Of a DNA stretch of 59,257 nucleotides, positions 9,649 through 27,489 are shown piece by piece. The notes below the pieces were generated by a model. That model saw only the letters and a list, made by a program, of their open reading frames with translations, was not told where the DNA came from and ran no database searches. Made by a program: the position numbers and the translations under genes. How positions within the stretch are numbered: the first letter of the stretch is position 1; every line of letters starts with the position of its first letter. This stretch comes from a bacterium. Lineage in GTDB: Bacteria; Vulcanimicrobiota; Vulcanimicrobiia; Vulcanimicrobiales; Vulcanimicrobiaceae. The stretch is taken from NCBI GenBank assembly GCA_021845615.1, contig JAJZVP010000001.1, forward strand, positions 1 to 59,257. Reading direction: 5' to 3'.

Positions 9649-9659
9649 AACGGAGTTCC

Positions 9660-12014: not shown

Positions 12015-12504
12015 TGGCGGCAGCCCGCATGCGCCGCCCTGCGAGCGCGACGGCTTCGACGATCTTCGTGTATCCGGTGCAGCGGCAGAGATGTCCGGCG
12101 AGCGATTCGCGAATCTCGGCTTCGCTCGGCTCCGGATTCTGCTCGAGCAAATGAGCGGCGGCATTCAAAAAACCGGGAGTGCAGTACCCGCATTGCGCGG
12201 CGCCGAGGTCCAAGAACGCGCGTTGAACCGGATGCAACGTACCGGCGCTCGCAAGGCCCTCGACCGTCTCGATGGGGCGGTCGATCGCATCGGCTGCAAG
12301 CGTCAGGCACGAAAGGACGGGAGTTCCATCGACGATGACGGTGCAGGCGCCGCATTGGCCGAGTTCGCAACCATGTTTGGTACCGGTCAAGCGTAGCTCT
12401 TCGCGCAAGACCTCAAGCAACGTCGCGTTGGGAGAGAACGCCAACGTCACGTCGCGCCCATTGACGCGTAGCGTTGCCAACAATTTCGATCGAGAAGTCG
12501 ACAC
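12007..12504 (-). CDS. [2Fe-2S]-binding small subunit (CoxS/XdhC-small like)
   Basis: CELGQCGACTV and CGYCTPG cluster motifs; 165 aa. Confidence 0.9.
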   Translation of the reverse strand: MSTSRSKLLATLRVNGRDVTLAFSPNATLLEVLREELRLTGTKHGCELGQCGACTVIVDGTPVLSCLTLAADAIDRPIETVEGLASAGTLHPVQRAFLDLGAAQCGYCTPGFLNAAAHLLEQNPEPSEAEIRESLAGHLCRCTGYTKIVEAVALAGRRMRAAANG

Positions 12505-12665
12505 GGGCGCCCCTCACCGCACGCGCGATCTGCGCGGCGCAAAAATACGCGTTGGAAAATATAATGAAGGGTTGCTACCGGCACCGAGTAACTCCTTTCC
12601 ACGCAGAATGCGAAAAATATTAGCCGCACCTTATAACAAAATGTCGACGAGCATAAAACAAATCC

Positions 12666-13727
12666 ATGCTTGATATTCTTTCTCGTATCGTGAACCTGCA
12701 ATCGGAGGCGCATGCGGTAGCGGTTGCGACGCTCGTCGACGTTCGCGGCTCATCGGCGCGCGAGCCCGGTGCAACGTTCGCCATCAGCGATAACGGCGAG
12801 CTCCTCGGTGCAATCGGCGGCGGATGCGTGGAGGCGGCGCTGGTCGACGAAGCGCGCGAAGTCATGCACGACCGAAAAACGCGAAGCGTTTCCTACGGGC
12901 TCTCCGAGCGCGAGGCGGGAGATGTGGGGCTCGCATGTGGAGGCGCGTTAACGATTTTTCTCGATCTCCCCGGCCCGAACTACTGCGCGGAGGTAGCACG
13001 GACGTGCGACGAGCTTATCGCCCACGCCATACGGCTCGATGGTGAAGAGAGCGGTGCACGAATGGCGATCTATTCGGATCGCCGGTTTGGAACTTTAGGG
13101 GGCGCCGGGCTCGATAGCGCGGTAGCGCGATACGCCTACGATCGTCCGCTGGGTGAAGCGGAGCGGGTCGATATCGAAGGCGCGACCGTATTTATCGCTC
13201 CGAAACGCATCGCACCGCACTTGTATGTGTTCGGTGCGCTCGATTTTGCCGCAGCGACGATCGAGATCGCGCACACGCTTGGTTACGTGGTGACGCTCTG
13301 CGACGCTCGTTCGGCCTTTGCAACGAAGGAACGCTTTCCGAAAGCAGATCGCATCGTCGTCGCGTGGCCGCACGAGTTTCTCGCCGCCGCGCCGGTCGAC
13401 GAACGAACGGCGATCGTATCGTTCGCACATGACGAAAAATTCGAGGTGCCGCTGCTTCTTGCGGCGGTTCGCTCGCGTGCCGGTTACATCGGAGCGCTCG
13501 GAAGTCGCGCGACGCACGCCCGTCGTGTCGAGGCGCTCCGCCAAGCGGGAATGACCGAGGTGGAGCTCGCGCGGATTTGCGCGCCGATCGGGCTCGATAT
13601 CGGGGCGCGAACGCCCGAAGAGACGGCGCTCGCGGTGCTCGCCGAAATCGTCGCGGTGCAACGCGGACGCTCGGGAGGGAGCCTTTCGTGCGGCACCGGC
13701 GCGATTCGCGGAGGCGTCGGCGGGTGA
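12666..13727 (+). CDS. XdhC/CoxI family molybdenum-cofactor insertion chaperone
   Basis: N-terminal XdhC_CoxI pattern (VATLVDVRGSSAREPGA) and a C-terminal Rossmann-like half. Divergent from the hydroxylase genes. Confidence 0.8.
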   Translation: MLDILSRIVNLQSEAHAVAVATLVDVRGSSAREPGATFAISDNGELLGAIGGGCVEAALVDEAREVMHDRKTRSVSYGLSEREAGDVGLACGGALTIFLDLPGPNYCAEVARTCDELIAHAIRLDGEESGARMAIYSDRRFGTLGGAGLDSAVARYAYDRPLGEAERVDIEGATVFIAPKRIAPHLYVFGALDFAAATIEIAHTLGYVVTLCDARSAFATKERFPKADRIVVAWPHEFLAAAPVDERTAIVSFAHDEKFEVPLLLAAVRSRAGYIGALGSRATHARRVEALRQAGMTEVELARICAPIGLDIGARTPEETALAVLAEIVAVQRGRSGGSLSCGTGAIRGGVGG

Positions 13728-14284
13728 AAGCGATTGCCGTCGTCCTCGCCGCGGGTGAGGCGCGGCGCATGGGCGAGCAAAAGCTGTTGCTCGAGATCGG
13801 CGGCGTTCCGATGCTCGCGCGCGTGCTGGCGGCCTGCGCGCATCTTCCGACGCTGGTGGTCGGAGCACCGAGCCTGCGCTCGTTCGTGGAACGCAGCGGC
13901 GTTCGCTATATCGCGAACGACGAGCCGGAACTCGGAATGGCGCACTCGCTCGCTCTCGGCAACGCCGAGGCCGAGCCCGGATTCCCGCTCGTGGTACTCC
14001 TCGGCGATAAGCCGCTTGTGACGCGCGAGCTCATCGACCGGGTCCTCGCAGGCGCCGGTACAAGCGATATTTGTTTTCCTCAGCGCGAAGGCATCGGCGG
14101 CCACCCGGTCTATATCTCGCCCCGCGCACGCGAACGAATTGCAAGCCTTCCGTGCGGTGACTCGATTCAACGATTACGCGACGACCCCACGTTGACGCGC
14201 CGAACGCTCGCGATCGACGACATCGGTGCCTATGCCGATGTTGACGATCCTGAGGCGTTCGAGCACCTGAAACGGCACGCATAG
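13724..14284 (+). CDS. MobA/MocA-like molybdenum cofactor nucleotidyltransferase
   Basis: GTG start overlapping the xdhC stop (GTGA). AVVLAAGEARRMGEQKLLL is the NTP_transf_3 signature. Confidence 0.75.
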   Translation: MKAIAVVLAAGEARRMGEQKLLLEIGGVPMLARVLAACAHLPTLVVGAPSLRSFVERSGVRYIANDEPELGMAHSLALGNAEAEPGFPLVVLLGDKPLVTRELIDRVLAGAGTSDICFPQREGIGGHPVYISPRARERIASLPCGDSIQRLRDDPTLTRRTLAIDDIGAYADVDDPEAFEHLKRHA

Positions 14285-14460: not shown

Positions 14461-14832
14461 TTATTGGACCATTTGTACGAATTTCCGGCTCACAGCCTTT
14501 CCATCGCTCTTTGCCGTCACCGTAAATGCCCAGCGCGTCGTGAAGGCGATCTTCAATAGGGCGACATAGCGGCCGTTTCCCTTCGGCGAGGCGAGTGCAG
14601 TTGGCCCGGCCATGGACATCTCCGGCATGCTCGTTGCGACGCTTACGTGCGCGCCGTTCACCGGTTCGTGGGCGCCGTCCGTCAGCCTCACCGTCACGGT
14701 TTCGGTCCCCGGCTGTGGCGGATTCGGAGAAAAACTCACGGACATTTTCAGTGGCTGCGCGGCGAGAGTCGAGATTTGGGCGACGGCCAGAATGGCTACC
14801 GCGATCGCGGCTACTAAACCAAGGCGTTTCAT
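14461..14832 (-). CDS. exported YtkA/FixH-like domain protein with Met-rich motif
   Basis: Signal peptide, SPNPPQPGTETVTV and SMPEMSMAGP. Paralogous to the N-terminal domain of the adaptor at 19341..21173. Confidence 0.6.
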   Translation of the reverse strand: MKRLGLVAAIAVAILAVAQISTLAAQPLKMSVSFSPNPPQPGTETVTVRLTDGAHEPVNGAHVSVATSMPEMSMAGPTALASPKGNGRYVALLKIAFTTRWAFTVTAKSDGKAVSRKFVQMVQ

Positions 14833-14864
14833 GGGTGTATTTCCTTATCGAGCGCGAGGGATCG

Positions 14865-16142
14865 TCATGATGCCGGCGCGTAGTCGCCGACGGCGCGGTG
14901 CAGTGCAGCTGCCGAATCCGCGTATCGTGCCCGGGCGCGAACGACGTCTTCGCGGGCGGACGCAACGGCTGCGAGCGCGTCGAGAATATCCAATTCGATT
15001 CCTTTACCGGCCCGTTCACGGACCCTCGCAATGTGCAATGTGACGTTTGCGTTTGCTAATTCGGTTCTGGCCGTAGCGACGTTGCGCTGTGCGGCCTGCA
15101 GTTCTCGCACGGCGTCGAGCACGTCGGCCTCTGCTTGTAGGCGCGTACGATCGAGTTCTATCTTCGCGCGTTCGTAGTTCGCTCGTGCCACGTGAACGTC
15201 GGCAGATCGGGAGCCGGCATCGAAGAGCGGCAGCGATGCGGAAACACCGACTTGCGCTCCGCTTCTACCTAAGGCGGGATCGGAGGACCCGTTGTAGGTC
15301 TGCGCGGTCGCAAAAATTTCCGGAAGGTACGCAGCGCGAGCTCGCGTGATGCCCCGTCGCGCAGCAAGCAAAGCCCGCTCCGCCGCCAGGACATCGGGAC
15401 GTTGTGTAAATGCACGCTGTTCCAGTGCCGCAACGTTGGGGGTAAGGCCAAGCGACGGCGTTTCCAGCGAGAAACTGAGCTTCGATGTTAGGCTGATGTC
15501 GAGCAGCACCTCGAGTGCATGGCGGGCCCGAACGGCATCGACTTTTGCGTCCTCCTCCGATTGCTCTGCGTGCGCAAGCGCGGCCCGGTCGCGAGCGATG
15601 AGGTATCTGGGTGCCGCGCCCGCGCGTACGCGTTCCTTCGTAAAGGCAAGGTGCGATTGTTGATCGCGCACGTCGATGCCCCGTTGCTCGACGACGGCCA
15701 GCGCATACCCCGCTGCATCGTACTGTTGCACGGCGACCATCACCGCCTGGTCGATCTCCATTGCGGCGGTTGCGCGTGCGGCAGAGGCGGTCTCGCCCGC
15801 GGCTCGGGCAGCGGCCCACGCTTGCGGCACGAAAAGCGGAACCCTAACATTCAGCGACGCGTACGTCTGTCGTGCGCTCGGCATTCCAAGTTGAACCAGC
15901 GTTGAATTCATGGTGGTTTCGCTAATCGACACGCTCGGCAAAACCCGGGAGAGCGCAGACTGCGCTCGCGCAGCAGCGGATTGCATGTTCAACCGCGCGA
16001 ACTCGGCATCGAAAGATTGCTGCGCGCGCGCGATAACCTGCGCTTGCGTGAGCGGGCCGTTCCACCGCATCGGCTGCGCGGAAACCGAGATGGTTGTCGC
16101 AATAGAAGCGGCGAGGACGATTGCTACGGTCGCCCTACGCAT
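14865..16142 (-). CDS. TolC-family outer membrane efflux protein
   Basis: Start at MRRATVAIVLAASIA (ATG 16142, 8-nt overlap with the RND stop). Two-repeat OEP-like coiled-coil sequence. Confidence 0.8.
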   Translation of the reverse strand: MRRATVAIVLAASIATTISVSAQPMRWNGPLTQAQVIARAQQSFDAEFARLNMQSAAARAQSALSRVLPSVSISETTMNSTLVQLGMPSARQTYASLNVRVPLFVPQAWAAARAAGETASAARATAAMEIDQAVMVAVQQYDAAGYALAVVEQRGIDVRDQQSHLAFTKERVRAGAAPRYLIARDRAALAHAEQSEEDAKVDAVRARHALEVLLDISLTSKLSFSLETPSLGLTPNVAALEQRAFTQRPDVLAAERALLAARRGITRARAAYLPEIFATAQTYNGSSDPALGRSGAQVGVSASLPLFDAGSRSADVHVARANYERAKIELDRTRLQAEADVLDAVRELQAAQRNVATARTELANANVTLHIARVRERAGKGIELDILDALAAVASAREDVVRARARYADSAAALHRAVGDYAPAS

Positions 16143-19100
16143 CTGCAGGCTCCGCCGGTTTGCTGGGCGCGCGCCGCAACACGTACTGTCGCCACCAGTG
16201 CGGTACGTCGTCGAACACATCATGCAGTACCGGCACGACGAAAAGCGTGAGCAACGTCGAGATCGAGAGTCCGCCGATGATCACGGTTGCGAGAGGCGAA
16301 TACGCATCGATGCCGGTTTTCGGGAAAAATGCGACCGGCACGAGTACGATGAGGCTGACGATCGTCGTCATGAGAATCGGCTGCAGACGAACCGGTCCCG
16401 CGTACAAAATCGCCTCGCGCCGCGAGAGACCTTCTTTGCGTTTGCGGAGAATCAGATCGAGAAGCAAGATCGCATTGCTCACGGCCATGCCGTTCGCGAC
16501 CACGATGCCTAAGATCGAAACAGTCGAGAAGCTCTGGTGCGCCAGCAGCAATGCGGTAAACATGCCGAGCATCTGCAGCGGAATCGCGATGAGCATCACC
16601 AGCGGTTGCGCCACAGAACGGAACTGCGCCACCAGCAAGAGGACGACGAACAGGATGGCGACTTCCATCGCTGCCAACAGCCTGGCGAAGCTCTGCGTCA
16701 TCTCGGTCATGTCGCCGAGCATCTTCATGCCGTAGCCTTGCGGGAAGGGCACGGCCGCCATGCCGCGCTTGAGGATGTTCATGTCCAGGGCCATCTCGCC
16801 GGGGCCGCCACGGTGGTAAAACCCAAGGAGCGACACACTGTTGCGCAAGGCATCCTGCTCGATCATCGATGGGCCGACGCTGCGTTCGATATGCGCGACT
16901 GCGCTCAACGGCACGACTTGGCCGCTCGAACCGACAATCTGCACCTCGGCGATGTCGCCTGTGCGGTTACGCCGATCGTGCGCGTAGCGCACGAGAATTT
17001 TGTCGTGGCGCACGTTCGCCGGATTGAAGTACTCCGTCGTCAGGCCGCCGTGCAACGCGTAGTACGCCTGTTGCTGTATCTGCGCAGGGCTGAGTCCGAT
17101 TTCAGATGCGCGCGTGCGGTCGACGACAAGGTCTTCCTCAGGTTGCGTGTATGCCGAACTCGTCGACACTTCGTAAAGCCCGGGAATCTGCTTCGCCTGA
17201 TCCGCGACGATATTCGCGAGATGATAGAGTTCCTTCCGGTCGGGGCCGTAGATCAGCATTTCGATCGGCGCCTGGTTGCTTGCCATGACGTCGGAACCCA
17301 TCGCTTGGAGAGCGAGTCGCCGGATACCGGGGATCGTACGCATCGCTTGGGAGTACGTCGCATCCATGATCTGCCAAATTGAGCGCTTGCGCTTTTCCTT
17401 CGTCTTGAGCGTGATCGTGTAGGACGCGTCGTTAACGCCGTTCATCGGCTGACCCGTGAAGTAATTGCCGCCGTTGTCCTCGCCGACCGACGCTGAGACT
17501 TTTTCGATATCGCGATCTTTCAGGAGCAGCGCTTCGAAGCGCCGACTGGCCGCATTCGTCGCCGCAAATGACGTGCCGGGATCCATCTCCAAGAAGCCGT
17601 AGGCCTGGCCGGTGTCGGCCAGCGGCATCATCTCCTGACCGATGAACGGCAAGAGCGAGATGCCGATGTACGTCAGGAGCGCTGCGCCGGCGAGCACCAT
17701 GCCGCGATGATCCAAGCTCCACGCGAGAGCACGCCGATAAGCGGCATCAAGTTTGCCCACGCCGATTCGAGCGGGACGCAACAGTCGCGTGACTGCCCGG
17801 TCCAAACGCGTGCGCAGCGGCGAGCGAAGCTCTTTGGTCTGAAACAAGAACGCAGCGAGCAGCGGCGTGAGCGTCACCGATACAAGCAACGATGCCACAA
17901 GTGCGAAGACGATCGGCCACACCAGGCCGACGAACATGATCTGCGTGATGCCGCCGCTCATCAGTAGCGGCACGACCGCGAGCGCCATAACACCGGTCGC
18001 CGCGGCGATGGGGACGATGACCTCCATCGTGCCGTCGATGGCTGCTCGCACCGGTGAAGCGCCTTGGTCGAGCTTACGGTGCACGGAATGAATAACCACG
18101 ATGGAGTCGTCCACGAGCCGACCGATCGCGAGGAGCAGGCCGATAAGCGTGCTGCTGTTGATGGAGAAGTTCATCGGCACGAAGAGCAGCACCGCGAGCG
18201 CCAAACATGTTGGAATCGATGTCATAACGATCAGCGTTGCGCGGATGTCTTCAAGAAAAATTAAGAGTACGATACCGGCAAGGATGACGCTGACAAGCAG
18301 CTCCTCGAACATGTTGCGCGTAAGATCGTTGACGAATCGCGAATTGTCGTACGCGCGCGCAAAGTGCAGACCGGGATGGTTCGACTCGATTTGCCTAATG
18401 CGATGCATGACCGCGCCGATCACCCGCGGTGAACTCGCATCGGGATTTTCGACCACGGAGAGTTCGACCGCGCTCTTGCCGTTGTAGCGATAGGTGTTGC
18501 GCACTTCCGCCGGGCCATCGGTGACGGAGGCTACATCACGCACGAAGATCGTGCGCCCGTCCTTCGTCGTTATCGGATAGTCGAGCATGCTCTGGGCCGA
18601 CCTCGTCCGCTGATCGCCGCGCACGAGCGTCTCGTACGGCCCCCCGGTAATTGTGCCGCCGGAGCGGCTACTGTTTTGCGCGTCCAGGGCGTCGCGGAGA
18701 TCGAGGATTGAGATGCCGTCGGCGGCGAGCGCGTTGCGGTTGACGTTGACATCGATCTGCCGCTGCAGGCCGCCGAACGGGAAGGCCACCTGCACGCCCG
18801 GCACGCCCTTCAAATCATTCACCACGTTGTTCGCCACGAACTGACGGAGCGCGACCGGATCCCAGCCGTCGCCGGTGACGGCGAGCTGCAGCACCGGTGT
18901 GTTGAGCGGATCGACCGGAACGACGTAGCTTGGTTTGAGATTGGCGCGATCGTACGGTAGATCGCCCTCGGCTTGCTTTGCGAGTTGCTGCGTATCGACC
19001 AGCGCCCGCTGCATGTCGGCGCCGTAGTGAAACTGCAGCGTGACGATCGAGATGCCTTGCTGTGAATACGAACGGATGTACCGCACGCCTTGCAGATCGG

Positions 19101-19344
19101 TCATCCGCTCTTCGATCGGTTTGGTGAAATACGTCTCGACTTCTTGCGGCGAGTATCCCGGCGTCATCGTAATGACGGAGATGAGCGGGCTTTGCACGTA
19201 CGGCATCATGCGTGTGGGCAGAAGGAAGAGTGCCGCCGCGATGGCGCCGACGACGACGGCGAGGAACGCGGCGAAGATTCCGTACGGGTTGCGTAACGCC
19301 CACGCCGCGATGCTACGCTCGTATTCCGTGATTCGATCGATCAC
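16135..19344 (-). CDS. RND efflux transporter permease (AcrB/CzcA superfamily)
   Basis: 1069 aa with a 12-TM architecture. TM4 region GLLLAIGRLVDDSIVVIHSVH looks closer to the HAE-type VDDAIVV than to the HME DFG-DGA-VEN signature. Confidence 0.9.
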   Translation of the reverse strand: MIDRITEYERSIAAWALRNPYGIFAAFLAVVVGAIAAALFLLPTRMMPYVQSPLISVITMTPGYSPQEVETYFTKPIEERMTDLQGVRYIRSYSQQGISIVTLQFHYGADMQRALVDTQQLAKQAEGDLPYDRANLKPSYVVPVDPLNTPVLQLAVTGDGWDPVALRQFVANNVVNDLKGVPGVQVAFPFGGLQRQIDVNVNRNALAADGISILDLRDALDAQNSSRSGGTITGGPYETLVRGDQRTRSAQSMLDYPITTKDGRTIFVRDVASVTDGPAEVRNTYRYNGKSAVELSVVENPDASSPRVIGAVMHRIRQIESNHPGLHFARAYDNSRFVNDLTRNMFEELLVSVILAGIVLLIFLEDIRATLIVMTSIPTCLALAVLLFVPMNFSINSSTLIGLLLAIGRLVDDSIVVIHSVHRKLDQGASPVRAAIDGTMEVIVPIAAATGVMALAVVPLLMSGGITQIMFVGLVWPIVFALVASLLVSVTLTPLLAAFLFQTKELRSPLRTRLDRAVTRLLRPARIGVGKLDAAYRRALAWSLDHRGMVLAGAALLTYIGISLLPFIGQEMMPLADTGQAYGFLEMDPGTSFAATNAASRRFEALLLKDRDIEKVSASVGEDNGGNYFTGQPMNGVNDASYTITLKTKEKRKRSIWQIMDATYSQAMRTIPGIRRLALQAMGSDVMASNQAPIEMLIYGPDRKELYHLANIVADQAKQIPGLYEVSTSSAYTQPEEDLVVDRTRASEIGLSPAQIQQQAYYALHGGLTTEYFNPANVRHDKILVRYAHDRRNRTGDIAEVQIVGSSGQVVPLSAVAHIERSVGPSMIEQDALRNSVSLLGFYHRGGPGEMALDMNILKRGMAAVPFPQGYGMKMLGDMTEMTQSFARLLAAMEVAILFVVLLLVAQFRSVAQPLVMLIAIPLQMLGMFTALLLAHQSFSTVSILGIVVANGMAVSNAILLLDLILRKRKEGLSRREAILYAGPVRLQPILMTTIVSLIVLVPVAFFPKTGIDAYSPLATVIIGGLSISTLLTLFVVPVLHDVFDDVPHWWRQYVLRRAPSKPAEPADA

Positions 19345-21173
19345 GAACCGCTCTCCGCGATGGCCTGGCCCTCTTCCAGGTTTTCAGCGCCGGTGACAAC
19401 GACGCGCATGCCCGCTTGCAGGCTGCCGGTAACCCGAGCGGTCGTACCGTCATTCGAAATGACCGTTACCGGGACGCGGTGCGCCGCGCCGTTCACATCG
19501 GTCCAAATGGCGGTGGTGACGCCGCCGACGACGCTCCCCGATGGAACGGCAAACGAGTGGCGCGGCGCGGTGCCCTGCGCATGCAGGATCGCGTGCACGA
19601 ACGCACCGGGTTGATAGCGATCGCCGGGATTCGGCACGATGGCCTCCGCGATCGCGGTGTGCGTGTTCGGATCGAGAACCGGCGAGAGGGACGAAATGCG
19701 GCCGTGCACCACCTTGCCGTCGGCGAACGTAATGTCGATCGGCGTGCCGATCCGTACGCCAGCAATATCTTGTTGCGCGACTTGCGCCTGCACGCGTAAA
19801 CGATTCACAACCGCGACTTGCAGAATCGGTGTGCCCGGCTGCACGTAGACACCCGGATCGATCAGGCGCTTCATCACGATGGAGTCATCGGGTACGATGA
19901 CGTTGGTGTAGCCCGCCATGACGCTTTGCGCTTGCGCGTTTGACGCCGCCTCTGCGGCTAGCGCTCGTGCAGACTGAATGCTCGCGTTTGCGCCCGCGAG
20001 CTGTGCGCGTGCGGCATCGTAGGCCGACTGCGCCGCAGCGGCCTGGGCCCGCTCGTTCTGATACCCTTGAACCGAGACCGCACCTTGATCGAGAAGCGAC
20101 TTCTCCCGCGCGATCTCCGCTTTCCAGTACGCGAGTTGTTGCTGCTTGGCGACGGCAGCGGCTTGCCTCGCCGACGCGTCGTACTTTACTGATGCTTGCC
20201 GATCGAGCGCAGCTTGTGCGGCTGACTGTGCAGCGCGCGCGCTATCCTGCAACTCCGGCTCGCTGAGATGCGCGACGATCTCGCCGGCTCTGAGGCGATC
20301 GCCGGTGTACGTGCGGAAATCGGTCAGCAGCCCGGGCGCGCGGGCAACGATCTCTTGCACGAGATACGGCTGCACGTTCGCGGGCGCGGAGATCGTCATT
20401 CCCGACGAACCGACGGCGACGGTGGCGAGCGTCACCGGTACCGGCGCCGATCCTTGCGCGCCCTGCATCGAGGCCATACCCGCAGAGGGCGAGCTGCTGC
20501 GCGATTGTGCGAAAGCGATGGCGAGCACGGTTAATCCGGCGATGGCCACCAGTGCGATGGTTGCTGGACGCCGATTGCGCAGGACGGCCAGCGCGCCGAT
20601 GAACATGACGACAAGCAGTGCAAAAGTTGCGTTGCGCCAGACGCTCGCATCACCCGCAGACGATGCGTTCATGCCGACCATCGAATCAGATGGCGTCGTC
20701 GGCATACCGCTACGCGGGACCGCGATCGAGCGGTTCGTCATCGCTTCTGCCGGCTTCACTGCCGAGATACGCGCAACCTGACCGACGACCAAAATTGCGT
20801 TGAGTGCACCCGTAACGCCTCCGGAAAACTGTACGCGCAGTCTCCAGTGTGCTGCCGTGCCGAACGGGATCTTAAAGTGCCATTTGTTCGTGCGTCCCGG
20901 AACGCGAGCCGCCGCGCCGCTCGGACCGATCATATTCATCGACGGCATGAGCGTTGTGTATCGCACCGTCGTCCGCGCCAGAGCAGCGGGCGAAACGCCG
21001 GCGATCGTCACGGTCACCAAATTCGTACCGACCTGCGGCGGATCGGGCGACATCACAATCGTCGCATGCGCTGCACCGATCCGAGCGGTCATCGGCATTG
21101 CGAGCGAGTTTGCGGCCAGTAGTGCCAACGCTATTGGCACGAACGCGCATAAAAAAAGGAGCCTTCGGATCAT
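19341..21173 (-). CDS. RND periplasmic adaptor (MFP/HlyD family) with N-terminal YtkA/FixH-like domain
   Basis: The C-terminal ~400 aa have an Ala/Gln-rich coiled-coil hairpin plus a beta-barrel pattern. The N-terminal ~130 aa (SPDPPQVGTNLVTV, LMPSMNMIGP) are paralogous to 14461..14832. Two hydrophobic segments lie between the two parts. Confidence 0.8.
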   Translation of the reverse strand: MIRRLLFLCAFVPIALALLAANSLAMPMTARIGAAHATIVMSPDPPQVGTNLVTVTIAGVSPAALARTTVRYTTLMPSMNMIGPSGAAARVPGRTNKWHFKIPFGTAAHWRLRVQFSGGVTGALNAILVVGQVARISAVKPAEAMTNRSIAVPRSGMPTTPSDSMVGMNASSAGDASVWRNATFALLVVMFIGALAVLRNRRPATIALVAIAGLTVLAIAFAQSRSSSPSAGMASMQGAQGSAPVPVTLATVAVGSSGMTISAPANVQPYLVQEIVARAPGLLTDFRTYTGDRLRAGEIVAHLSEPELQDSARAAQSAAQAALDRQASVKYDASARQAAAVAKQQQLAYWKAEIAREKSLLDQGAVSVQGYQNERAQAAAAQSAYDAARAQLAGANASIQSARALAAEAASNAQAQSVMAGYTNVIVPDDSIVMKRLIDPGVYVQPGTPILQVAVVNRLRVQAQVAQQDIAGVRIGTPIDITFADGKVVHGRISSLSPVLDPNTHTAIAEAIVPNPGDRYQPGAFVHAILHAQGTAPRHSFAVPSGSVVGGVTTAIWTDVNGAAHRVPVTVISNDGTTARVTGSLQAGMRVVVTGAENLEEGQAIAESGS

Positions 21174-22138
21174 GAGATCATCCCCAAGGAGCAGTGAACG
21201 AGCGCGGTCGCAATTGCGGGCACCGCAACCCCGAACGCGACGATGACTGCAAGAGCGGCGACGACGGCATCGCGGCGCCGACGGTCAGGTACGATGTCGC
21301 CTCTCGGCCGCAGCAAGACCTCTAAGCGGCCATACACCGCGTCGCGTTCGGCGAAAGCCGCGACCGGGCGCATTCCCGTGGATGTGGCACCGCGAGCGAC
21401 GCGCAAGAGCGCGGACGCGAGATCGGTGCGCTTCACGTGCGAGAGCGCGCAGTCATCAGCGCAGAACTCGCGCGAGCAACGGTAAACACCGATGAGGCGT
21501 TCGACCTGCAACGGCAGCAAATCGGTCAGGAAATAGAGCCACGGCGTCAAGCGATGATCGCCGCGCTCGATATGCGCGCGCTCGTGAAAGAGTGCCGCGC
21601 GCAGCTCCGGGTCGTCGAACTGCTGCAGCGAAAAGGTTGATGCGTACGCGCCGGGATGAGGGACATTGGCAACCATAATGAGCATTTCACGTTCGTCGCG
21701 CACTTCGAAGAGCGGAATACAGACCTCCGCAGCGATGCGCGCGGCCCGGCCGCGCGCCGGCTCCGCGTTCGCCAGCATCGCGCGCAGGTCGCGTTGCCGC
21801 CTGTGCGCGCGCACGATCGATCTCCCGATCGCCGCAGCGACGAGCGTGGCAAGGAACACGAAGAGCATCTTGCCGGCGGTCAGTTGCAAACAGGGGGAGT
21901 TGGTGCCCTCCGCGATCCCGAGAGCGACGAGTCCCAAAAAGAGCGCGCCGGGTACGCTTGCAGCGAGTGCGGCGAGGCCGGCCTGCCAGTAGCGGTCGTC
22001 GTGCATCGCTTCGATAGAAGGGGTCAGCGCCCGCACCCCCAGCCACGCTAACGGCGGGACGATCAGCGCCGCGCAAAGCGACGTAAACATCGCACCCGAG
22101 GTCAGACATGCGACGAGCAGCGCGGCGATTTGGTTCAC
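21170..22138 (-). CDS. M56 family (BlaR1/MecR1-like) membrane metalloprotease, no recognisable C-terminal sensor domain
   Basis: HExxH motif in FHERAHIERGDH, multiple TM segments, 322 aa. 4-nt overlaps with both neighbours. Confidence 0.75.
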   Translation of the reverse strand: MNQIAALLVACLTSGAMFTSLCAALIVPPLAWLGVRALTPSIEAMHDDRYWQAGLAALAASVPGALFLGLVALGIAEGTNSPCLQLTAGKMLFVFLATLVAAAIGRSIVRAHRRQRDLRAMLANAEPARGRAARIAAEVCIPLFEVRDEREMLIMVANVPHPGAYASTFSLQQFDDPELRAALFHERAHIERGDHRLTPWLYFLTDLLPLQVERLIGVYRCSREFCADDCALSHVKRTDLASALLRVARGATSTGMRPVAAFAERDAVYGRLEVLLRPRGDIVPDRRRRDAVVAALAVIVAFGVAVPAIATALVHCSLGMIS

Positions 22139-22557
22139 CGTTCTCCTCTTTCGCGTTGCTCGGCGAGCAGGCGCTCGAATTCTTGGAGCGACTCGGCGTC
22201 ATGCGCCATCGTCTCGGCTAAACTCGCGATGAGCGGACTGCGATAGTTGCGTAATAGTCCGCTCAGGACACCGCCGACGACGCGCCGGTCGAACTCCTCT
22301 TTCGAGAGCGCGGCGGCGAACGCGTTCGCGCGGCCGATGGAGCGCTTCTTCAAATAGCCCTTCTCGGTTAGCGTATTCAGGGTGGTCTTCGCCGACGAGT
22401 AATGCACGTGTTGGCCCGCGTTCTTCAGCCACTCGGCGACGTCACCGACGGTGATGGGGCGATCCATGGCCCAAACGGCATCCAGGACGAGGCTCTCCAG
22501 CGGTCCTAAAACAGCCGCTGAGCCAGCTTCATCTGGGCGGAATATTCGGGCCTCCAT
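22135..22557 (-). CDS. BlaI/MecI/CopY family transcriptional repressor
   Basis: 140 aa. Winged-helix pattern LGPLESLVLDAVWAMDRPITVGDVAEWL...YSSAKTTLNTLTEKGYL. Confidence 0.85.
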   Translation of the reverse strand: MEARIFRPDEAGSAAVLGPLESLVLDAVWAMDRPITVGDVAEWLKNAGQHVHYSSAKTTLNTLTEKGYLKKRSIGRANAFAAALSKEEFDRRVVGGVLSGLLRNYRSPLIASLAETMAHDAESLQEFERLLAEQRERGER

Positions 22558-22566
22558 ATGCCAAGG

Positions 22567-22595
22567 ACGTTAGCAGGTCTACGGGGAGGCGTCAA
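22567..22595 (-). promoter_or_regulatory. candidate sigma70-type promoter of the blaI operon (TTGACG-17-TAACGT), near-leaderless
   Basis: On the minus strand the -35 is TTGACG (plus 22590-22595) and the -10 is TAACGT (plus 22567-22572). Only 9 nt separate the -10 from the ATG and no SD is visible. Confidence 0.35.
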
Positions 22596-22610: not shown

Positions 22611-22776
22611 TTGTAGGAGCAATGCAGAGATGTCCCCTCCTCAGCAAAGCAGAGATGTCCCCTCGACGGCCAACGGGCCTCCGATGGAGTTCATTACGAT
22701 GTCTCAGAGAGAACTTTCCCGCCTTCAGGCCGCCCAGCGTGTCCTCGACCGCTCCATGAGCGTGGCTGAGGCGGCG
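22611..22776 (+). mobile_element. truncated left end of an ISNCY-like IS (IR region plus first ~30 codons of transposase)
   Basis: About 120 nt are identical to 34816..34936 of the full copy, and the first ~45 nt are diverged. Homology stops abruptly after GAGGCGGCG at 22776. Confidence 0.8.
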
Positions 22777-23009: not shown

Positions 23010-23063
23010 TGAAGCTGGCCCGGTTCCGTGGATACTTTCCGCTTGGCGGAGAAAGGTCCACCC

Positions 23064-23381
23064 ATGGCCAGAAAACATACCCACCCCTACCCGGCGGACT
23101 TCCGGCAGAAGGTTGTCGAGCTTGCTCGATCGGGTCGCGGCATCCATGACCTCGCAGCGGAGTTCAAGCTCGCGGGGCAGACGATTCGCAACTGGATCAA
23201 GCAAGCCGATTTGAACACCGGGCGCCGCAGCGACGGCTTGACGACCGCCGAGCATGAGGAGCTTGCGAAGCTTCGCAAGGAAAACCGACAGCTCAAGATC
23301 GAGCGCGAAATTCTGGGAAAAGCCGCAGCCTGGTTCGCTCGCGAGACCGATTCGATTCCCCCAAGGTCTTCGAATTCGTGA
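23064..23381 (+). CDS. IS3-family transposase OrfA (HTH)
   Basis: MARKHTHPYPADFRQKVVELARSG...LRKENRQLKIEREILGKAAAWFARE. A -1 frame change near 23358-23366 joins to ...KVFEFVKAHQ of orfB. Confidence 0.8.
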   Translation: MARKHTHPYPADFRQKVVELARSGRGIHDLAAEFKLAGQTIRNWIKQADLNTGRRSDGLTTAEHEELAKLRKENRQLKIEREILGKAAAWFARETDSIPPRSSNS

Positions 23382-24211
23382 AAGCGCACCAGGCCATTTG
23401 GCCCGTAACCACGCAATGCCGCGTTTTGGAAGTCTCGTCCAGCGGTTTCTATGCGTGGCTCAAGCGCGTGCCTTCGAAGCGATGCCAGGCAAATGCCGTG
23501 CTTGGTGATCGTATCGTCGCCTTGCATCGCGCATCGCTCGAAAACTACGGACGCCCGCGCATCCAAGCCGATCTTCGCGATGAGCAGATCTTCGTCAGCG
23601 ATAAGCGGGTGGCGAGATTGATGCGCGAGCGCAACATTCAGGGCGCCAGCCGTCGTAAGGCTTTTAAGACGACGATCCGCGACAAGGAAGCACGACCGGC
23701 GCCCGACTTGGTCAACCGACAATTCACCGCCTCTGCCCCCGATCAGCTCTGGGTTGCAGACATCACCTACGTACCAACATTGACCGGCTTCCTGTTTCTT
23801 GCGATCGTGCTCGACGTATTCAGCCGCCGCGTCGTCGGCTGGGCGATGGCGACACACATGAGAGCTGAGCTCGTCGTCGACGCGCTCGACATGGCCATCC
23901 ACAACCGAAAACCGACGAACGTGATTCACCATTCCGACCAAGGATCGCAATATACGTCAATTGCCTTCAGCAAGCGCTGCGATAGCGCCGGCGTCCATCC
24001 TTCGATGGGTTCGGTTGGCGACTGCTACGACAACGCAATGTGCGAGAGCTTCAATGCGATCCTCGAATGCGAATTGCTCGTCAAGCACCGCTTCGCGACG
24101 CAACGTGCGGCGGCGCTCAAAGTCTTCGAGTTCATCGAGGGCTACTACAATCCACGACGTCGGCATACGGCGATCGGGAACATCTCCCCGATGGAGTTCG
24201 AGCTGACGTAG
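23378..24211 (+). CDS. IS3-family transposase OrfB (DDE), last codons displaced by the nested IS
   Basis: Integrase core pattern (HHSDQGSQYTS, GSVGDCYDNAMCESF). The ORF runs into the inserted element at 24204, and the native C-terminus resumes at 25424. Confidence 0.8.
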   Translation: MKAHQAIWPVTTQCRVLEVSSSGFYAWLKRVPSKRCQANAVLGDRIVALHRASLENYGRPRIQADLRDEQIFVSDKRVARLMRERNIQGASRRKAFKTTIRDKEARPAPDLVNRQFTASAPDQLWVADITYVPTLTGFLFLAIVLDVFSRRVVGWAMATHMRAELVVDALDMAIHNRKPTNVIHHSDQGSQYTSIAFSKRCDSAGVHPSMGSVGDCYDNAMCESFNAILECELLVKHRFATQRAAALKVFEFIEGYYNPRRRHTAIGNISPMEFELT

Positions 24212-24220
24212 CCCCATTTG

Positions 24221-25084
24221 TCAGGCCGCTTCGAATTGTGGCCGAGTGTTTTTCAGTCCTTCGCGATACTGCTGCGCAAATTCTGCTGGCGTAAGGTATT
24301 TTAGCGAGCCATGGGGCCGGTGCGTATTGTATCGAATTCTCCATTCCTCGACGGTCGCTCGGATCTGATCCATGGTTAGAAACCAATGCTCGTTCAGGAC
24401 TTCGTCCCGTAGGCGCCCGTTGAAACTCTCGATCTTCCCGTTCTGCGTCGGCTTCCCGGGATCGATGAAATGCAATTTGACATTTTTTTCGGCGCCCCAC
24501 TTGAGCATCGCTAAACTCGAGAACTCGGGGCCATTGTCGAATTTTACGGTTGCAGGATAGCCCCGTTCCGCAGCAATTTGCTCGAGAACGCGAATGACGC
24601 GGCGCGCAGGCAATGAGGAATCAATTTCGATCGCTATGCTCTCGGCGGTGAAATCATCGATGACGGTCAGGAGGCGAACGTTGCGCCCGTTGGCAAGCGT
24701 GTCATGAACGAAATCCATCGACCAGCGTTCGTTCGGTGCCGTAACGGTGGGGGACGTCGCTCCGCGAACGTATCGAGCGTGGCGTTTTTTGCGTCTACGA
24801 ACCTGCAATTCCGCGGTACGATAGATGCGGTAGAAGCGCTTATGATTCATGGAAATGGCATGGTCGCGTCGAAGGATGAAGTGCAGCTTGCGATACCCGG
24901 ATCGGCGATTCTCTTCGACCAATTGATGGATAAGTGTCAGCAACCGCAAATCAGTGGTTCGCTTGAAACGATACTGTGCTGTCGATCGAGGGCATCCAAT
25001 AAGCGCGCACGCCCGCCGTTCGCTATACCCGCGCTGGTCCTGCAGCTCATGCACCGCTGCGCGGCGGCGGGCAGAGCTTACCAT
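24221..25084 (-). CDS. IS407-like transposase OrfB (DDE)
   Basis: 287 aa integrase-core pattern. Fused to orfA by a -1 frameshift at the A7 run (plus-strand T7 at 25084-25090). Confidence 0.85.
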   Translation of the reverse strand: MVSSARRRAAVHELQDQRGYSERRACALIGCPRSTAQYRFKRTTDLRLLTLIHQLVEENRRSGYRKLHFILRRDHAISMNHKRFYRIYRTAELQVRRRKKRHARYVRGATSPTVTAPNERWSMDFVHDTLANGRNVRLLTVIDDFTAESIAIEIDSSLPARRVIRVLEQIAAERGYPATVKFDNGPEFSSLAMLKWGAEKNVKLHFIDPGKPTQNGKIESFNGRLRDEVLNEHWFLTMDQIRATVEEWRIRYNTHRPHGSLKYLTPAEFAQQYREGLKNTRPQFEAA

Positions 25085-25344
25085 TTTTTTGTACTGAGAT
25101 ATTTCAAAGCGTCGATATCCATCGCTTGGTTTGCGACGATCCGCTTGAGGCGGCTATTTTCTTCCTCAAGCTGCTTTATCCGCATAACGTCGCTCACTTC
25201 GAGGCCGCCATACTTGCCTTTCCAGTTCCGAAGCGTGTTCGGGTGGATGCCGTGCTTTCTGCAGATCTCGGCGGTCATGCCCGTCGCGTCGTGCTCTTTG
25301 AGAATCTCGACGATCTGCGCTTCCGTGAAGCGAGTTTTCTTCAT
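25078..25344 (-). CDS. IS407-like transposase OrfA
   Basis: MKKTRFTEAQIVEILKEHDATGMTAEICRKHGIHPNTLRNWKGKYGG...LKRIVANQAMDIDALK is the classic IS407-group OrfA. Confidence 0.85.
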   Translation of the reverse strand: MKKTRFTEAQIVEILKEHDATGMTAEICRKHGIHPNTLRNWKGKYGGLEVSDVMRIKQLEEENSRLKRIVANQAMDIDALKYLSTKKW

Positions 25345-25494
25345 AGAGGGTCTCCTTAACGAGGCGTTTTGCCTCAGAGACCACAATTTCATTTGGCCCG
25401 AATTTACGGGGCTACGTCAGAGCGGCGCATGAGTCAGGCTGCTTGATGTCTAACCCAAAACCCTCCGCGAAAGCGGGCCAGCTTCACCTTTACT

Positions 25495-25525
25495 CCCCGA
25501 GCCGTCGGCTATTGACGGCTCGGGG
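25495..25525. other. perfect 12-bp stem hairpin (CCCCGAGCCGTC-7 nt-GACGGCTCGGGG) in the remnant DNA after the IS3 right end
   Basis: Read directly. Function unknown, possibly a terminator or an IS-associated structure. Confidence 0.3.
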
Positions 25526-25652
25526 GAGCCCTTTCGCGGTTGGAAAGGGTGAGGGCGTTTTCTTTCTCGCTACCCGGGGGCGTTTACGTTATCGCTAGCA
25601 TCGTGCGTTCTTCTTTTTTAGAGCTAGTTGTTGGACTGCTGCGACGACTCGA

Positions 25653-26294
25653 TCAGTCGTAGCAGCAGTCGTCATCAGAAAACGCTTCCCGGCCTTCCTT
25701 GATTAGGAAGCACAGCACGCCCAGAGAGGCGACGGCATCAATCCACCACCAGCCGAAGACGTATTGGGCCCCGAGGCCAGTGAGCACGATCAACGATAGA
25801 TAGCTACACGCAATTGCCTCGGCGCCATCGGCTTTGAGGGCACGGCTCTCGAGTATGCTGCCAAGGTGCCGCTTACGCCGACCGAGAGCGACCATGAGCG
25901 GAAATGCCACTAGCGTGAGTAAGAAGCCGACGAGCGTGAACGCTTCACCGCTTCGATGGACCAGCGACAGAATCGAAGCAATCAGCACGTATGCGGCCAG
26001 CACGAACAGCAGCGAGCCCGCAACAACCGCGGCGCGCCGTTCCACCGACTCGTCGAAATCGTTACCATCACGGCCTTCAACGTAGAGGCGTCGTGCTACG
26101 ACGGCTGCCGAGATTAGTTCGACGACGCTGTCGAGACCGAAGCCGAGCAGCGACACGCTGTGCGCCTGAATCGCCGAGACGATGGCGATCGCCGCCTCGG
26201 CGATCATCCAGGAAATCGTGAGCCACTGCAGGGCGATCGCAGCCGAAATCAGGCGGTGACGATCAGTCAACATGCTGCCGCGCAATCGGTGCAT
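25653..26294 (-). CDS. short CDF-like cation transporter (transmembrane domain only, COG3965-like)
   Basis: About 210 aa with 5-6 TM segments. SLLGFGLDSVVELISA resembles the CDF TM2 site. The C-terminus ends in DDDCCYD. Confidence 0.55.
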   Translation of the reverse strand: MHRLRGSMLTDRHRLISAAIALQWLTISWMIAEAAIAIVSAIQAHSVSLLGFGLDSVVELISAAVVARRLYVEGRDGNDFDESVERRAAVVAGSLLFVLAAYVLIASILSLVHRSGEAFTLVGFLLTLVAFPLMVALGRRKRHLGSILESRALKADGAEAIACSYLSLIVLTGLGAQYVFGWWWIDAVASLGVLCFLIKEGREAFSDDDCCYD

Positions 26295-27151: not shown

Positions 27152-27169
27152 TGGTAGCTACCTACTTTG

Positions 27170-27445
27170 CTATTTCAAGTATGCTCGAACGACATCGATA
27201 AGGTCTTCCGCAAAGGCGGTGCGCGCGGCCGGTTTCACAACGTCAGCCAGCACGTGCTGTCTGATATGGCCTTCAAGAACTTCCGACATCAGGCTGTCCA
27301 TGGCACCGCGCGCTGCCGCGATGCGCTGCAGGATCTCGCTGCACTCTGCTTCCGATTCAAGGCTGCGAAGCACAGAATTGACTTGACCCTGAATCTTCTT
27401 TACGCGGTGCACGAGCTTAACTTTGTCTTGGATTGTGTGGCTCAC
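27170..27445 (-). CDS. CsoR/RcnR/FrmR family metal-sensing repressor
   Basis: 91 aa. RVKKIQGQVNSVLRSLESEAECSEILQRIAAARGAMDSLMSEVLEGHIRQH fits the DUF156 pattern with Cys and His ligand positions. GTG start. Confidence 0.85.
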   Translation of the reverse strand: MSHTIQDKVKLVHRVKKIQGQVNSVLRSLESEAECSEILQRIAAARGAMDSLMSEVLEGHIRQHVLADVVKPAARTAFAEDLIDVVRAYLK

Positions 27446-27472
27446 GCCCTAAGGCTTCGCCTCAGTTCGTAA

Positions 27473-27489
27473 ATACCCTACCGGGGTAT
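27473..27489. promoter_or_regulatory. CsoR-type operator candidate ATACCC-N5-GGGTAT, followed by a second palindrome CCTATAGG
   Basis: Lies 28 nt upstream of the csoR-like start. A GC-rich inverted repeat resembling known TACCC...GGGTA CsoR sites. Confidence 0.5.

Follow-up and report, generated by a model that had tools for sequence, protein, structure and literature searches.

A conserved operon of uncultured Eremiobacterota places a candidate Cu(I)/Ag(I) RND efflux system with free and adaptor-tethered CrdA-like domains behind a sensor-less BlaI/M56 pair

Introduction

What does a repressor-protease pair of the BlaI/BlaR1 type respond to when its protease carries no sensor domain, and what would be exported by a pump encoded directly behind it? 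Sensor-less BlaI/BlaR pairs are numerous and have been studied in mycobacteria, Pseudomonas and cyanobacteria. Both questions are raised by a six-gene operon of a bacterium of the family Vulcanimicrobiaceae, found on a 59,257-nt stretch of contig JAJZVP010000001.1 (GenBank assembly GCA_021845615.1; the whole stretch analysed is called the window hereafter). The operon encodes a BlaI-like repressor, an M56-like protease, the adaptor, permease and outer-membrane factor (OMF) of a resistance-nodulation-division (RND) efflux system, and a small exported protein, as follows, with lengths in amino acids (aa) and all six genes read from their open reading frames (ORFs).

22135-22557, minus strand: blaI-like gene, 140 aa
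21170-22138, minus strand: M56-like gene, 322 aa
19341-21173, minus strand: adaptor (membrane fusion protein, MFP) gene, 610 aa
16135-19344, minus strand: RND permease gene, 1069 aa
14865-16142, minus strand: OMF gene of the TolC/NodT type, 425 aa; PF02321 (OEP), E 2e-34
14461-14832, minus strand: gene for a small exported YtkA/CrdA-like protein, 123 aa; PF13115

Here we compare this locus with its relatives and propose that its product is probably a tripartite RND efflux system that regulates itself through a repressor-protease switch and exports a soft metal, Cu(I) and/or Ag(I) being the most likely.

Results

Conservation of the six-gene unit

A preliminary description made from the letters of the window alone had read the six minus-strand genes as one unit, and a check of the ORFs bore this out. 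Successive genes overlap by exactly 4, 4, 4 and 8 nt, a 32-nt gap precedes the gene for the 123-aa protein, and in the window all six lie behind a single operator. The OMF length of 425 aa is counted from the ATG that yields the 8-nt overlap with the RND gene, an overlap that is kept in orthologous loci. Related loci were gathered by contig look-ups and by scanning species-representative genomes and metagenome contigs, which together gave ~35 distinct loci (cited below by L numbers); the genome scan used an alignment of M56 orthologues only, the short M56 paralogues described below being left out. Wherever an orthologous M56 gene was accompanied by enough flanking DNA (~35 loci, 35-90% protein identity), the order blaI, M56, adaptor, RND, OMF was kept. 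The association of a BlaI/M56 pair with an RND operon, first noticed at this one locus, thus proved strict: every locus with an orthologous M56 gene and enough downstream DNA also has the adaptor, RND and OMF genes. Where the M56 protein is a more remote relative (27-34% identity), a blaI-like gene still lies next to it and no pump is present.

The small YtkA-like gene was present in every locus that reaches that far, with the exception of one lineage (L001, L004 and L011), and in L014, which is labelled Verrucomicrobiia and is possibly misbinned, the small gene is kept and the adaptor has no N-terminal domain. Every locus that could be checked for both copies has at least one copy of the YtkA-like domain, a pattern that fits partly redundant roles of the free and the tethered copy. 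Nearly all loci with a taxon label belong to Eremiobacterota; the adaptor homologues comprise more than 100 full-length clusters, and the named ones are Eremiobacterota metagenome-assembled genomes (Vulcanimicrobiaceae, Baltobacteraceae, WPS-2). Neighbours of the related loci are metal genes: CsoR-like, DUF411 and NicO genes, a cation-diffusion-facilitator (CDF) gene with an ArsR gene, and a gene for a secreted Met/His-rich protein. A plasmid search found no near-identical DNA to the operon on known plasmids. Comparison of these loci indicates that the six-gene operon is a real unit under selection, conserved across the uncultured soil phylum Eremiobacterota.

A candidate operator for the repressor

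The BlaI-like protein matches PF03965 (Penicillinase_R) at 69.8 bits (cut-off 22.6, E 3e-19) over profile positions 1-114 of 115, and a search of its profile against solved structures placed BlaI of M. tuberculosis, Rv1846c, first (2G9W, E 1.3e-9), followed by MecI (1.4e-4). It contains no Cys and therefore cannot be a CopY-type metal sensor. Assignment to the CopY subtype, which has a C-terminal CxCx4CxC metal site, was rejected on the same ground, the NCBIfam CopY/TcrY model scoring 29 bits against a cut-off of 122. The promoter and operator elements, read from the sequence, lie immediately ahead of blaI.

22559-22595, minus strand: promoter and operator region
22590-22595, minus strand: -35 box TTGACG, separated by a 17-nt spacer from the -10 box
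22567-22575, minus strand: extended -10 box, TGCTAACGT
22559-22575, minus strand: 17-bp dyad TGCTAACGTCCTTGGCA (TGCTA-N7-TAGCA), which ends 1 nt before the blaI ATG and overlaps the -10 box

An exact-seed inverted-repeat search upstream of blaI returned nothing, and the imperfect dyad emerged only when loci were compared. With at most one mismatch allowed, the dyad has a single match in the 59-kb window, and 37 of the 38 related loci have it in this same position ahead of the blaI ATG; most loci of ~18 kb hold exactly the one or two dyad matches described here, against ~0.14 expected by chance. In all loci the upstream layout reads TTGAC, N17, TGCTAAGGT, N6, GCAcATG, and the sequence of the spacer varies freely. 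This conservation across loci provides strong comparative evidence that the repressor controls its own genes together with those of the pump, and it ties the repressor to the operon. The -10 hexamer ends 9 nt before the ATG (22555-22575), leaving no room for a Shine-Dalgarno sequence, and the same layout was seen in most related loci inspected, so that blaI, the first gene, is probably translated from a leaderless mRNA.

Most clades other than that of the window carry a second copy of the dyad 19-31 nt past the M56 stop codon, within the codons for the adaptor signal peptide. It is present in L006, L008, L014-L016, L038-L050, L052 and L059, and is missing from the window's clade and from L017, L018 and L051, which belong to other clades. 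The second dyad uses a CTA leucine codon; at ~62% G+C this codon is expected to be uncommon. We considered whether the second copy goes with an intergenic gap between the M56 and adaptor genes and rejected this explanation, as the genes still abut in most such loci and the pattern follows clade. The second dyad may block read-through or repress an internal promoter. Its loss in the window's clade left all six genes behind one operator, and the distribution among clades indicates that this one-operator arrangement is a derived state, the second operator at the M56/adaptor junction being kept by most other clades.

Free and tethered CrdA-like domains

The preliminary description had also called attention to an extra N-terminal domain of the adaptor, to its paralogy with the small protein at the end of the operon, and to a Met-rich motif in both. 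The features concerned are these.

14611-14628, minus strand: MPEMSM, the Met motif of the 123-aa protein
20784-21098, minus strand: N-terminal YtkA/CrdA-like domain of the adaptor, aa 26-130 (~105 aa)
20931-20948, minus strand: MPSMNM, the Met motif of the adaptor N-terminal domain
20460-20711, minus strand: membrane hairpin of the adaptor with its Met flanks, helices at aa 182-198 and 204-222
20661-20711, minus strand: Met cluster SGMPTTPSDSMVGMNAS before the hairpin
20460-20480, minus strand: Met cluster GMASMQG after the hairpin

The 123-aa protein scores 36.1 bits against YtkA (PF13115; cut-off 25.9) and 25.7 bits against FixH (PF05751; cut-off 23). Identity as FixH was rejected: its score is marginal and lies under the stronger YtkA match, no fixG, fixI or fixS gene was found in any locus, and the protein has a signal peptide only. 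A sequence search against solved structures gave nothing significant, and the relationship to CrdA was revealed only by fold and profile searches. In Helicobacter pylori, CrdA is the Met-rich periplasmic component encoded by the copper resistance determinant CrdA-CrdB-CzcB-CzcA (PMC9182242). The AlphaFold2 model of the 123-aa protein is an all-beta sandwich with a mean predicted local distance difference test (pLDDT) score of 74.6, for which the best Foldseek matches in the Protein Data Bank (PDB) were the apo and Ag-bound forms of H. pylori CrdA (9LL2/9LL4; E 7.6e-5 and 1e-4, TM-score 0.60-0.69), with 26% identity and a root-mean-square deviation of 2.9-3.1 over 97 columns. A profile of the small proteins likewise ranked CrdA first, with SMPxMSMxGP in register with MMPEMPGMPAM, and CrdA itself scores 91.9 bits on PF13115.

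Across the loci the small proteins have in common FSP(D/N)PPxQGxExxTV and a G(D/N)GxY...ATxW block, MPxMxMxGP is invariant among them, and no His or Cys is conserved; the protein of the window has no Cys at all and, like CrdA, an ordinary signal peptide. In L006, L012, L014 and L015 the small protein has a lipobox (LAAC, LGAC or LTAC), as expected of a lipoprotein like CtaK of Bacillus subtilis. The adaptor N-terminal domain is 32% identical to the 123-aa protein over 75 aa (BLASTP E 1e-7), and a reciprocal tblastn match between the two recurs in most related loci, so that the suspected paralogy holds. The MPxMxM motif is close to universal, occurring in all small proteins and in nearly all full-length adaptor N-terminal domains. 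The computational checks put forward with the preliminary description all turned out in its favour: the 123-aa protein passes the YtkA and FixH thresholds and is significantly similar to the adaptor domain. The adaptor domain by itself scores 12.7 bits on YtkA (20.1 bits for an orthologue), and its membership in PF13115 is based on its paralogy with the small protein and on adaptor homologues for which PF13115 is recorded.

The adaptor itself matches HlyD_D23 and HlyD_3 in Pfam and, in NCBIfam, RND_mfp (133 bits) and the CzcB/NccB family (93.7 bits). It is laid out as a signal peptide, the ~105-aa domain, a Met-rich linker, two hydrophobic helices, a second Met-containing stretch and a CusB/CzcB-like MFP core; the extra domain and the two hydrophobic segments ahead of the core are thus as first described, the domain being ~105 aa long. 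In most adaptor homologues the two membrane helices are bracketed by M.GM.M, directly ahead of the first, and MDMxxM, directly behind the second; the variants in the window are SMVGMN and GMASM.

Domains of this family also serve in copper supply. CtaK (YtkA) and the YtkA domain of YcnJ handle copper in CuA assembly or delivery (PMC9145763, PMC13344008), and the system could accordingly be taken to route copper to periplasmic or membrane cuproenzymes, as do CtaK/YtkA, YcnJ and FixH-associated systems, and not to remove it. The activity of CtaK and YcnJ in CuA assembly and the passing of the FixH threshold by the small protein would favour such a role, which we nevertheless regard as very improbable: an OMF gene within the operon points to expulsion from the cell, a repressor removed upon a signal is what a resistance system would be expected to use, none of the loci examined has linked genes for oxidases or their assembly, and the informative neighbours are of the resistance type. 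Export of Cu(I) and/or Ag(I) remains the reading that we prefer. CtaK and YcnJ do provide a precedent for PF13115 domains that handle copper outside the cytoplasm both as a free protein and as part of a membrane transporter. Their roles lie in the assembly of CuA and the import of copper, not in export, and CtaK is a lipoprotein with conserved His and Met and a His-rich tail, whereas the 123-aa protein has conserved Met only and an ordinary signal peptide, some of its orthologues being lipoproteins.

The RND permease

The permease matches ACR_tran at 675 bits and reaches no NCBIfam cut-off. It was aligned with CusA and AcrB of Escherichia coli K-12, and three stretches stand out (TM, transmembrane helix).

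18079-18123, minus strand: TM4, GRLVDDSIVVIHSVH; identical or with 1-2 differences in 13 orthologues
19201-19212, minus strand: RMMP, after TM1
17623-17634, minus strand: EMMP, after TM7

A CusA-type heavy-metal efflux (HME) RND was rejected: the residues at CusA M573, M623 and M672 read F, D and V, the transmembrane Met pairs are absent, TM4 has an Asp-Asp pair, and TIGR00914 scores 362 bits against a cut-off of 701. TM4 looks like the hydrophobe/amphiphile efflux (HAE) and not the HME kind, as had been judged by eye, with the Asp-Asp pair and no CusA features. AcrB D407, D408, R971 and T978 are kept, as are F178 and Y327, and Ser stands opposite K940; of the Phe residues that line the distal pocket of AcrB (F610, F615, F617, F628), the cluster is mostly absent. 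RMMP and EMMP occupy pseudo-symmetric positions at the periplasmic membrane surface and are among the clade's own invariant Met. Orthology with copBAC of Synechocystis was also rejected, CopA being 26% identical to the permease and 30% to CusA, and CopC having no Pfam match and a non-significant BLAST score. By these sequence criteria the permease belongs to a distinct clade without the CusA Met triad and with Met motifs of its own.

The closest annotated relatives of the permease are cyanobacterial plasmid RND proteins (Nostoc pC052_E, Stanieria pSTA7437.03, Acaryochloris, Leptolyngbya) with 48-51% identity, the others among the matches listed reaching at most 29%. They have in common with it VDDSI in TM4, RMMP, EMMP and most of the clade-specific Met. 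The cyanobacterial adaptor, of ~600 aa, also carries a fused PF13115 domain (52-60 bits) and a Met-rich stretch beside a membrane helix, and the operons encode a paralogous free PF13115 protein annotated as a 'FixH family protein'; the fused domain is C-terminal there and N-terminal, ahead of the hairpin, in the window. The cyanobacterial operons have no OMF gene and no BlaI/M56 pair, their regulators being MerR-type or two-component, and MerR-type heavy-metal regulators, a copper-type P1B ATPase, a multicopper oxidase, DUF411 and thioredoxin are encoded nearby. A literature search found no publication on these operons, which therefore serve as context only and not as functional proof. On Nostoc pC052_E (L022 9262-9576) a 104-aa exported 'hypothetical protein' is encoded right after the RND gene; it ends in CKCCQAMMNNMPGMMNNMPGMMNN and is a Met-rich, Cys-containing candidate metal binder.

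An HAE-type exporter of drugs, detergents or organic toxins would account for the AcrB-like Asp-Asp pair in TM4, for the kept R971, T978, F178 and Y327, and for the multidrug pumps that are the best relatives among both solved structures and NCBIfam models. The BlaI/M56 pair would then respond to envelope or antibiotic stress as in Staphylococcus aureus and mycobacteria, and the YtkA-like domains would be structural modules of the immunoglobulin-like kind or would bind something that is not a metal. A non-metal role of a sensor-less BlaIR pair has a precedent in PvmSR of Pseudomonas aeruginosa, which regulates virulence (a preprint that also cites sensor-less BlaR orthologues in M. tuberculosis and M. 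abscessus), and a link between tetracycline resistance and the Crd pump of H. pylori has been reported (PMC12319023). We consider this explanation unlikely. A drug exporter would have no evident use for the three separate Met clusters conserved in the adaptor or for the MPxMxM motif shared by the two YtkA-like domains, the closest structure to the 123-aa protein is the copper/silver-binding CrdA, the distal-pocket Phe cluster is mostly absent, and the neighbourhoods of the related and the cyanobacterial loci are metal-related and not antibiotic-related.

The sensor-less M56 protease

The M56 protein retains the two zinc motifs of the family, and four of its Cys are invariant.

21572-21586, minus strand: HERAH, aa 185-189, HEXXH zinc motif
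21455-21469, minus strand: EFCAD, aa 224-228, EXXXD zinc motif
22106-22108, minus strand: C11, in the N-terminal helix
22073-22075, minus strand: C22, in the outer part of TM1
21890-21892, minus strand: C83, in the TM2-TM3 loop
21191-21193, minus strand: C316, just past TM4

HERAH and EFCAD are invariant in 39 M56 sequences and lie in the cytoplasmic domain between TM3 and TM4. In the AlphaFold2 model (pLDDT 86.5) helices span residues 16-43, 49-78, 87-122 and 286-321, the protease domain standing between the third and the fourth, and the top Foldseek matches, with weak scores, were ZMPSTE24 and S. aureus BlaR1. A sequence search against solved structures gave nothing significant for this protein, and many of its orthologues carry a precomputed PF05569 match. 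An exhaustive search found 10,272 relatives at E <=0.001, the closest of which are ~300-330 aa long. The protein of the window ends 7 residues past TM4, from which it follows that it has no sensor domain and hence no penicillin-binding domain; the gene thus encodes a 322-aa M56/M48-type putative membrane zinc protease with HERAH and no sensor, as was first supposed.

C11, C22, C83 and C316 are invariant in 39 homologues and in ~35 orthologue cluster representatives of the exhaustive search. The first three vanish outside the pump-linked M56 group, and a Cys at the C-terminus, in many cases following a His, has a wider distribution. From the Arg-rich stretches that follow TM3 and precede TM4, the TM2-TM3 loop (C83) and the C-terminus (C316) are placed on the periplasmic side. 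The loop, EGTNSPCLQLTAGK, has the invariant Cys and no conserved Met. We infer that the four Cys, on the predicted periplasmic face, may form the site at which the signal is received.

Cys sites bind Zn, Cd and Hg well, and a pump for another divalent or thiophilic metal (Zn, Cd, Co, Ni, Hg, Pb), sensed by a Cys-bearing M56 protein, has other features in its favour: the second-best NCBIfam family of the adaptor is CzcB/NccB and the adaptor also matches the divalent-metal adaptor IhpB, ZneA is among the better solved relatives of the permease, CDF genes lie nearby in the window and in L009, and the cyanobacterial MerR regulators score alike as CadR/PbrR, ZntR, MerR and CueR. It is an improbable explanation in our judgement, as the conserved ligand candidates in the chaperone domains, the adaptor and the permease are Met, which suit Cu(I)/Ag(I) and serve poorly for Zn, Co or Ni, and these parts show no conserved clusters of His, Asp, Glu or Cys. 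In addition, Cys is absent from the small protein and none of its His is conserved, and the TM4 signature of CzcA/ZneA-type permeases is absent. Cu(I) and/or Ag(I) are the ions with which this Met-based set of motifs agrees best.

Further BlaI/short-M56 pairs, with M56 proteins of 268-277 aa, are encoded close by in related loci (L008 3142-6445, L009 1-5693, also L032 and L041). These short paralogues have no counterpart of the first two helices and keep the loop Cys and the C-terminal His-Cys. One such pair follows a second RND-OMF-adaptor set and another precedes the gene for a 661-aa protein without a Pfam match. BlaI/M56 modules seem to be a recurrent regulatory device in Eremiobacterota.

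Comparison with characterised systems

Each half of the operon has a characterised relative. On the pump side the H. pylori Crd system (HP1326-HP1329) has the same four parts by gene content, namely a YtkA-family Met-rich protein, an OMF, an adaptor and an RND permease, and the MMPEMPGM motif of CrdA aligns with the MPxMxM motif of the 123-aa protein, both being members of PF13115. The gene order differs, a second chaperone-like domain on the adaptor is not described there, and control is by the CrdRS two-component system and not by a BlaI/M56 pair (PMC9182242).

Like the system proposed here, E. coli CusCFBA combines a tripartite RND pump and a Cu(I)/Ag(I) chaperone of its own in the periplasm. 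The Met-rich N-terminal site of CusB takes metal from CusF; the same principle, in which a free chaperone supplies a site carried by the adaptor, is proposed for the operon. CusF has an oligonucleotide/oligosaccharide-binding fold and not a YtkA/immunoglobulin-like one, CusA has a single Asp in TM4 where the operon's permease has Asp-Asp (24% identity), and cusCFBA adjoins the CusRS two-component genes.

On the regulatory side the nearest parallel is PetR/PetP of Synechocystis, in which a BlaI-family gene overlaps the downstream gene for a four-helix, sensor-less M48/M56 protease (PetP being compared by its description), as happens in the operon with a 4-nt overlap. Degradation of the regulator needs the protease and copper, and the TM2-TM3 loop of PetP has been proposed as the copper sensor. 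Two Met are the proposed ligands in that loop, whereas the protease of the window has the invariant C83 there and four invariant Cys overall. PetRP controls the plastocyanin/cytochrome c6 switch (four genes) and not an efflux pump: Synechocystis copBAC is still copper-induced in petR and petP mutants and is reported to be controlled by CopRS. The PetR site is GAC-N5-GTC, against TGCTA-N7-TAGCA here.

The BlaI/BlaR1 and MecI/MecR1 pairs of S. aureus have repressors of the same Pfam family, HEXXH and EXXXD between TM3 and TM4, adjacent co-oriented genes and a dyad operator over the promoter, as in the operon. Unlike BlaR1, the M56 protein of the window has no penicillin-binding domain, so that the signal cannot be beta-lactam acylation, and the targets are the genes of an efflux pump.

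In literature searches, no account turned up of an RND pump under the control of a BlaI/M56 pair, of adaptors that bear a YtkA domain, or of this RND clade. The preliminary description had not recognised the combination as a characterised system; as a combination it is undescribed, and that statement has to be narrowed in that the pump has characterised counterparts in Crd and Cus, and the switch has one in PetRP. What is new is the combination, with several of its details.

Surroundings of the operon

A 22-nt repeat, GAGGGGACATCTCTGC(A/T)TTGCT, occurs twice in tandem (22618-22664) ~23 nt upstream of the operon's -35 box, with related copies at 34804-34825 and, inverted, at 36133-36154; by chance, no such copy would be expected. 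L010 is the closest relative, and the only part of the window that its sequence upstream of blaI matches is at ~36.4-38.0 kb (the region of the SBP_bac_5 gene, 36971-38659), so that the ~13.5 kb between looks like an inserted mobile block bounded by the repeats. Within this block, over 23028-29564 of the window, lie insertion-sequence (IS) transposase genes and a CDF gene.

23378-24211, plus strand: IS3-family transposase gene
24221-25084, minus strand: IS3-family transposase gene
25653-26294, minus strand: CDF gene, 213 aa
27984-29564, minus strand: IS66 transposase gene

The CDF region has ~48-50% amino-acid identity (tblastx) to CDF genes beside the orthologous operon in L009. In L018 (18226-18624) the ORF directly after the small YtkA-like gene encodes a 132-aa exported protein, extremely rich in Met and His, with MMGGPHGG repeats and no Pfam match. 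It is preceded by dyad-like sites, and such sites were noted at ~17998 and 18756-18892; L017 and L051 are of the same lineage. This protein may be a further member of the regulon, acting as a metal 'sponge'. Downstream of the operon in the window lies a molybdenum-hydroxylase cluster (8653-14284) that appears unrelated to it, the first two of its genes below being assigned by eye.

9660-12164: putative large subunit
12007-12504: putative 2Fe-2S subunit
12666-13727: XdhC
13577-14284: MobA-like transferase

Discussion

The comparison described above suggests a route for the metal and a switch for the genes. In the proposed route the free CrdA-like protein would capture excess periplasmic Cu(I)/Ag(I) at its MPxMxM motif and pass it to the copy tethered to the adaptor. 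From there the metal would move to the Met clusters at the adaptor hairpin, on the membrane surface, reach the RMMP and EMMP motifs after TM1 and TM7 of the permease, and leave through the outer-membrane channel, with export driven by an AcrB-like Asp-Asp proton relay. In the proposed switch the BlaI-like repressor would bind the 17-bp dyad over the -10 box, next to the blaI start codon; the M56 protease would perceive the signal at its Cys-bearing periplasmic face, either directly or through a metal-loaded YtkA-like domain, and its cytoplasmic zinc site would cleave the repressor and so derepress all six genes. The metal, the order of the relay, the proteolysis of the repressor, the sensing site and induction are all inferred in this scheme.

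The copper/silver reading is favoured by the conserved thioether motifs and by the metal-gene neighbourhoods. A number of results weigh against it, and most concern the permease. It does not resemble an HME protein, having neither the Met triad of CusA nor its transmembrane Met pairs; the best NCBIfam model, which scores 574 bits (cut-off 1250), is a multidrug RND family; among solved structures the multidrug pump MdtB comes first (320 bits, versus 244 for ZneA and 202 for CusA); the protein is about equally distant from MdtB, ZneA, CusA and AcrB, so that metal pumps are no closer to it than drug pumps; and it is 26% identical to CopA, a characterised cyanobacterial copper RND. Its cyanobacterial relatives at 50% identity are themselves uncharacterised, and the models for CadR/PbrR, ZntR, MerR and CueR score alike on the MerR regulators near them, which assigns no metal. 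On the side of the switch, the M56 protein scores 20.5 bits against Pfam Peptidase_M56, below the cut-off of 31, and the BlaR1 cryo-electron microscopy chains that make up Foldseek ranks 2-6 and 8, at a probability of 0.99-1.0, have weak E values (0.03-0.3) and TM-scores (0.34-0.42). The N101-F102 cleavage site of BlaI is not placed consistently in the BlaI-like protein, as two alignments disagree: MAFFT set LLRN/Y opposite LVLN/F, the Asn/Phe scissile bond of S. aureus BlaI, and alignment to the PDB MecI by hidden Markov model, which supersedes the former, gave PLIAS/L. A Cys-based site could equally sense Zn, Cd, Hg or the redox state, and the hosts of the operon are all uncultured. Given the HAE-like core of the permease and a case built on sequence comparison, our confidence in a self-regulated Cu(I) and/or Ag(I) efflux system is moderate.

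More tentative is a pair of proposals taken jointly, which we put forward as a possibility that would more easily fail than hold. The first is that C11, C22, C83 and C316 of the M56 protein constitute the signal-receiving site, either binding Cu(I)/Ag(I) or docking a metal-loaded CrdA-like domain. The second is that Cu(I)/Ag(I) export has been solved here in a way of its own, by an AcrB-like Asp-Asp RND permease that has acquired MMP motifs at the membrane surface, these being fed by the Met clusters of an adaptor with its own tethered chaperone. That a tethered-chaperone adaptor recurs in cyanobacteria with another domain order suggests that hand-over between the free and the tethered chaperone is functionally important.

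If true, the four-Cys face would be a concrete and mutable answer to the question of how sensor-less BlaR/PetP-type proteases perceive their signal, and the operon offers a defined output for such work, namely a pump operon with a clear operator and a protease with few invariant, mutable Cys. It would also widen the range of copper/silver RND systems to a clade that has Met motifs of its own in place of the CusA triad and whose adaptor bears a tethered chaperone. Eremiobacterota have been reported to be abundant in copper/nickel mine tailings, and the operon is a candidate metal-resistance marker for this phylum.

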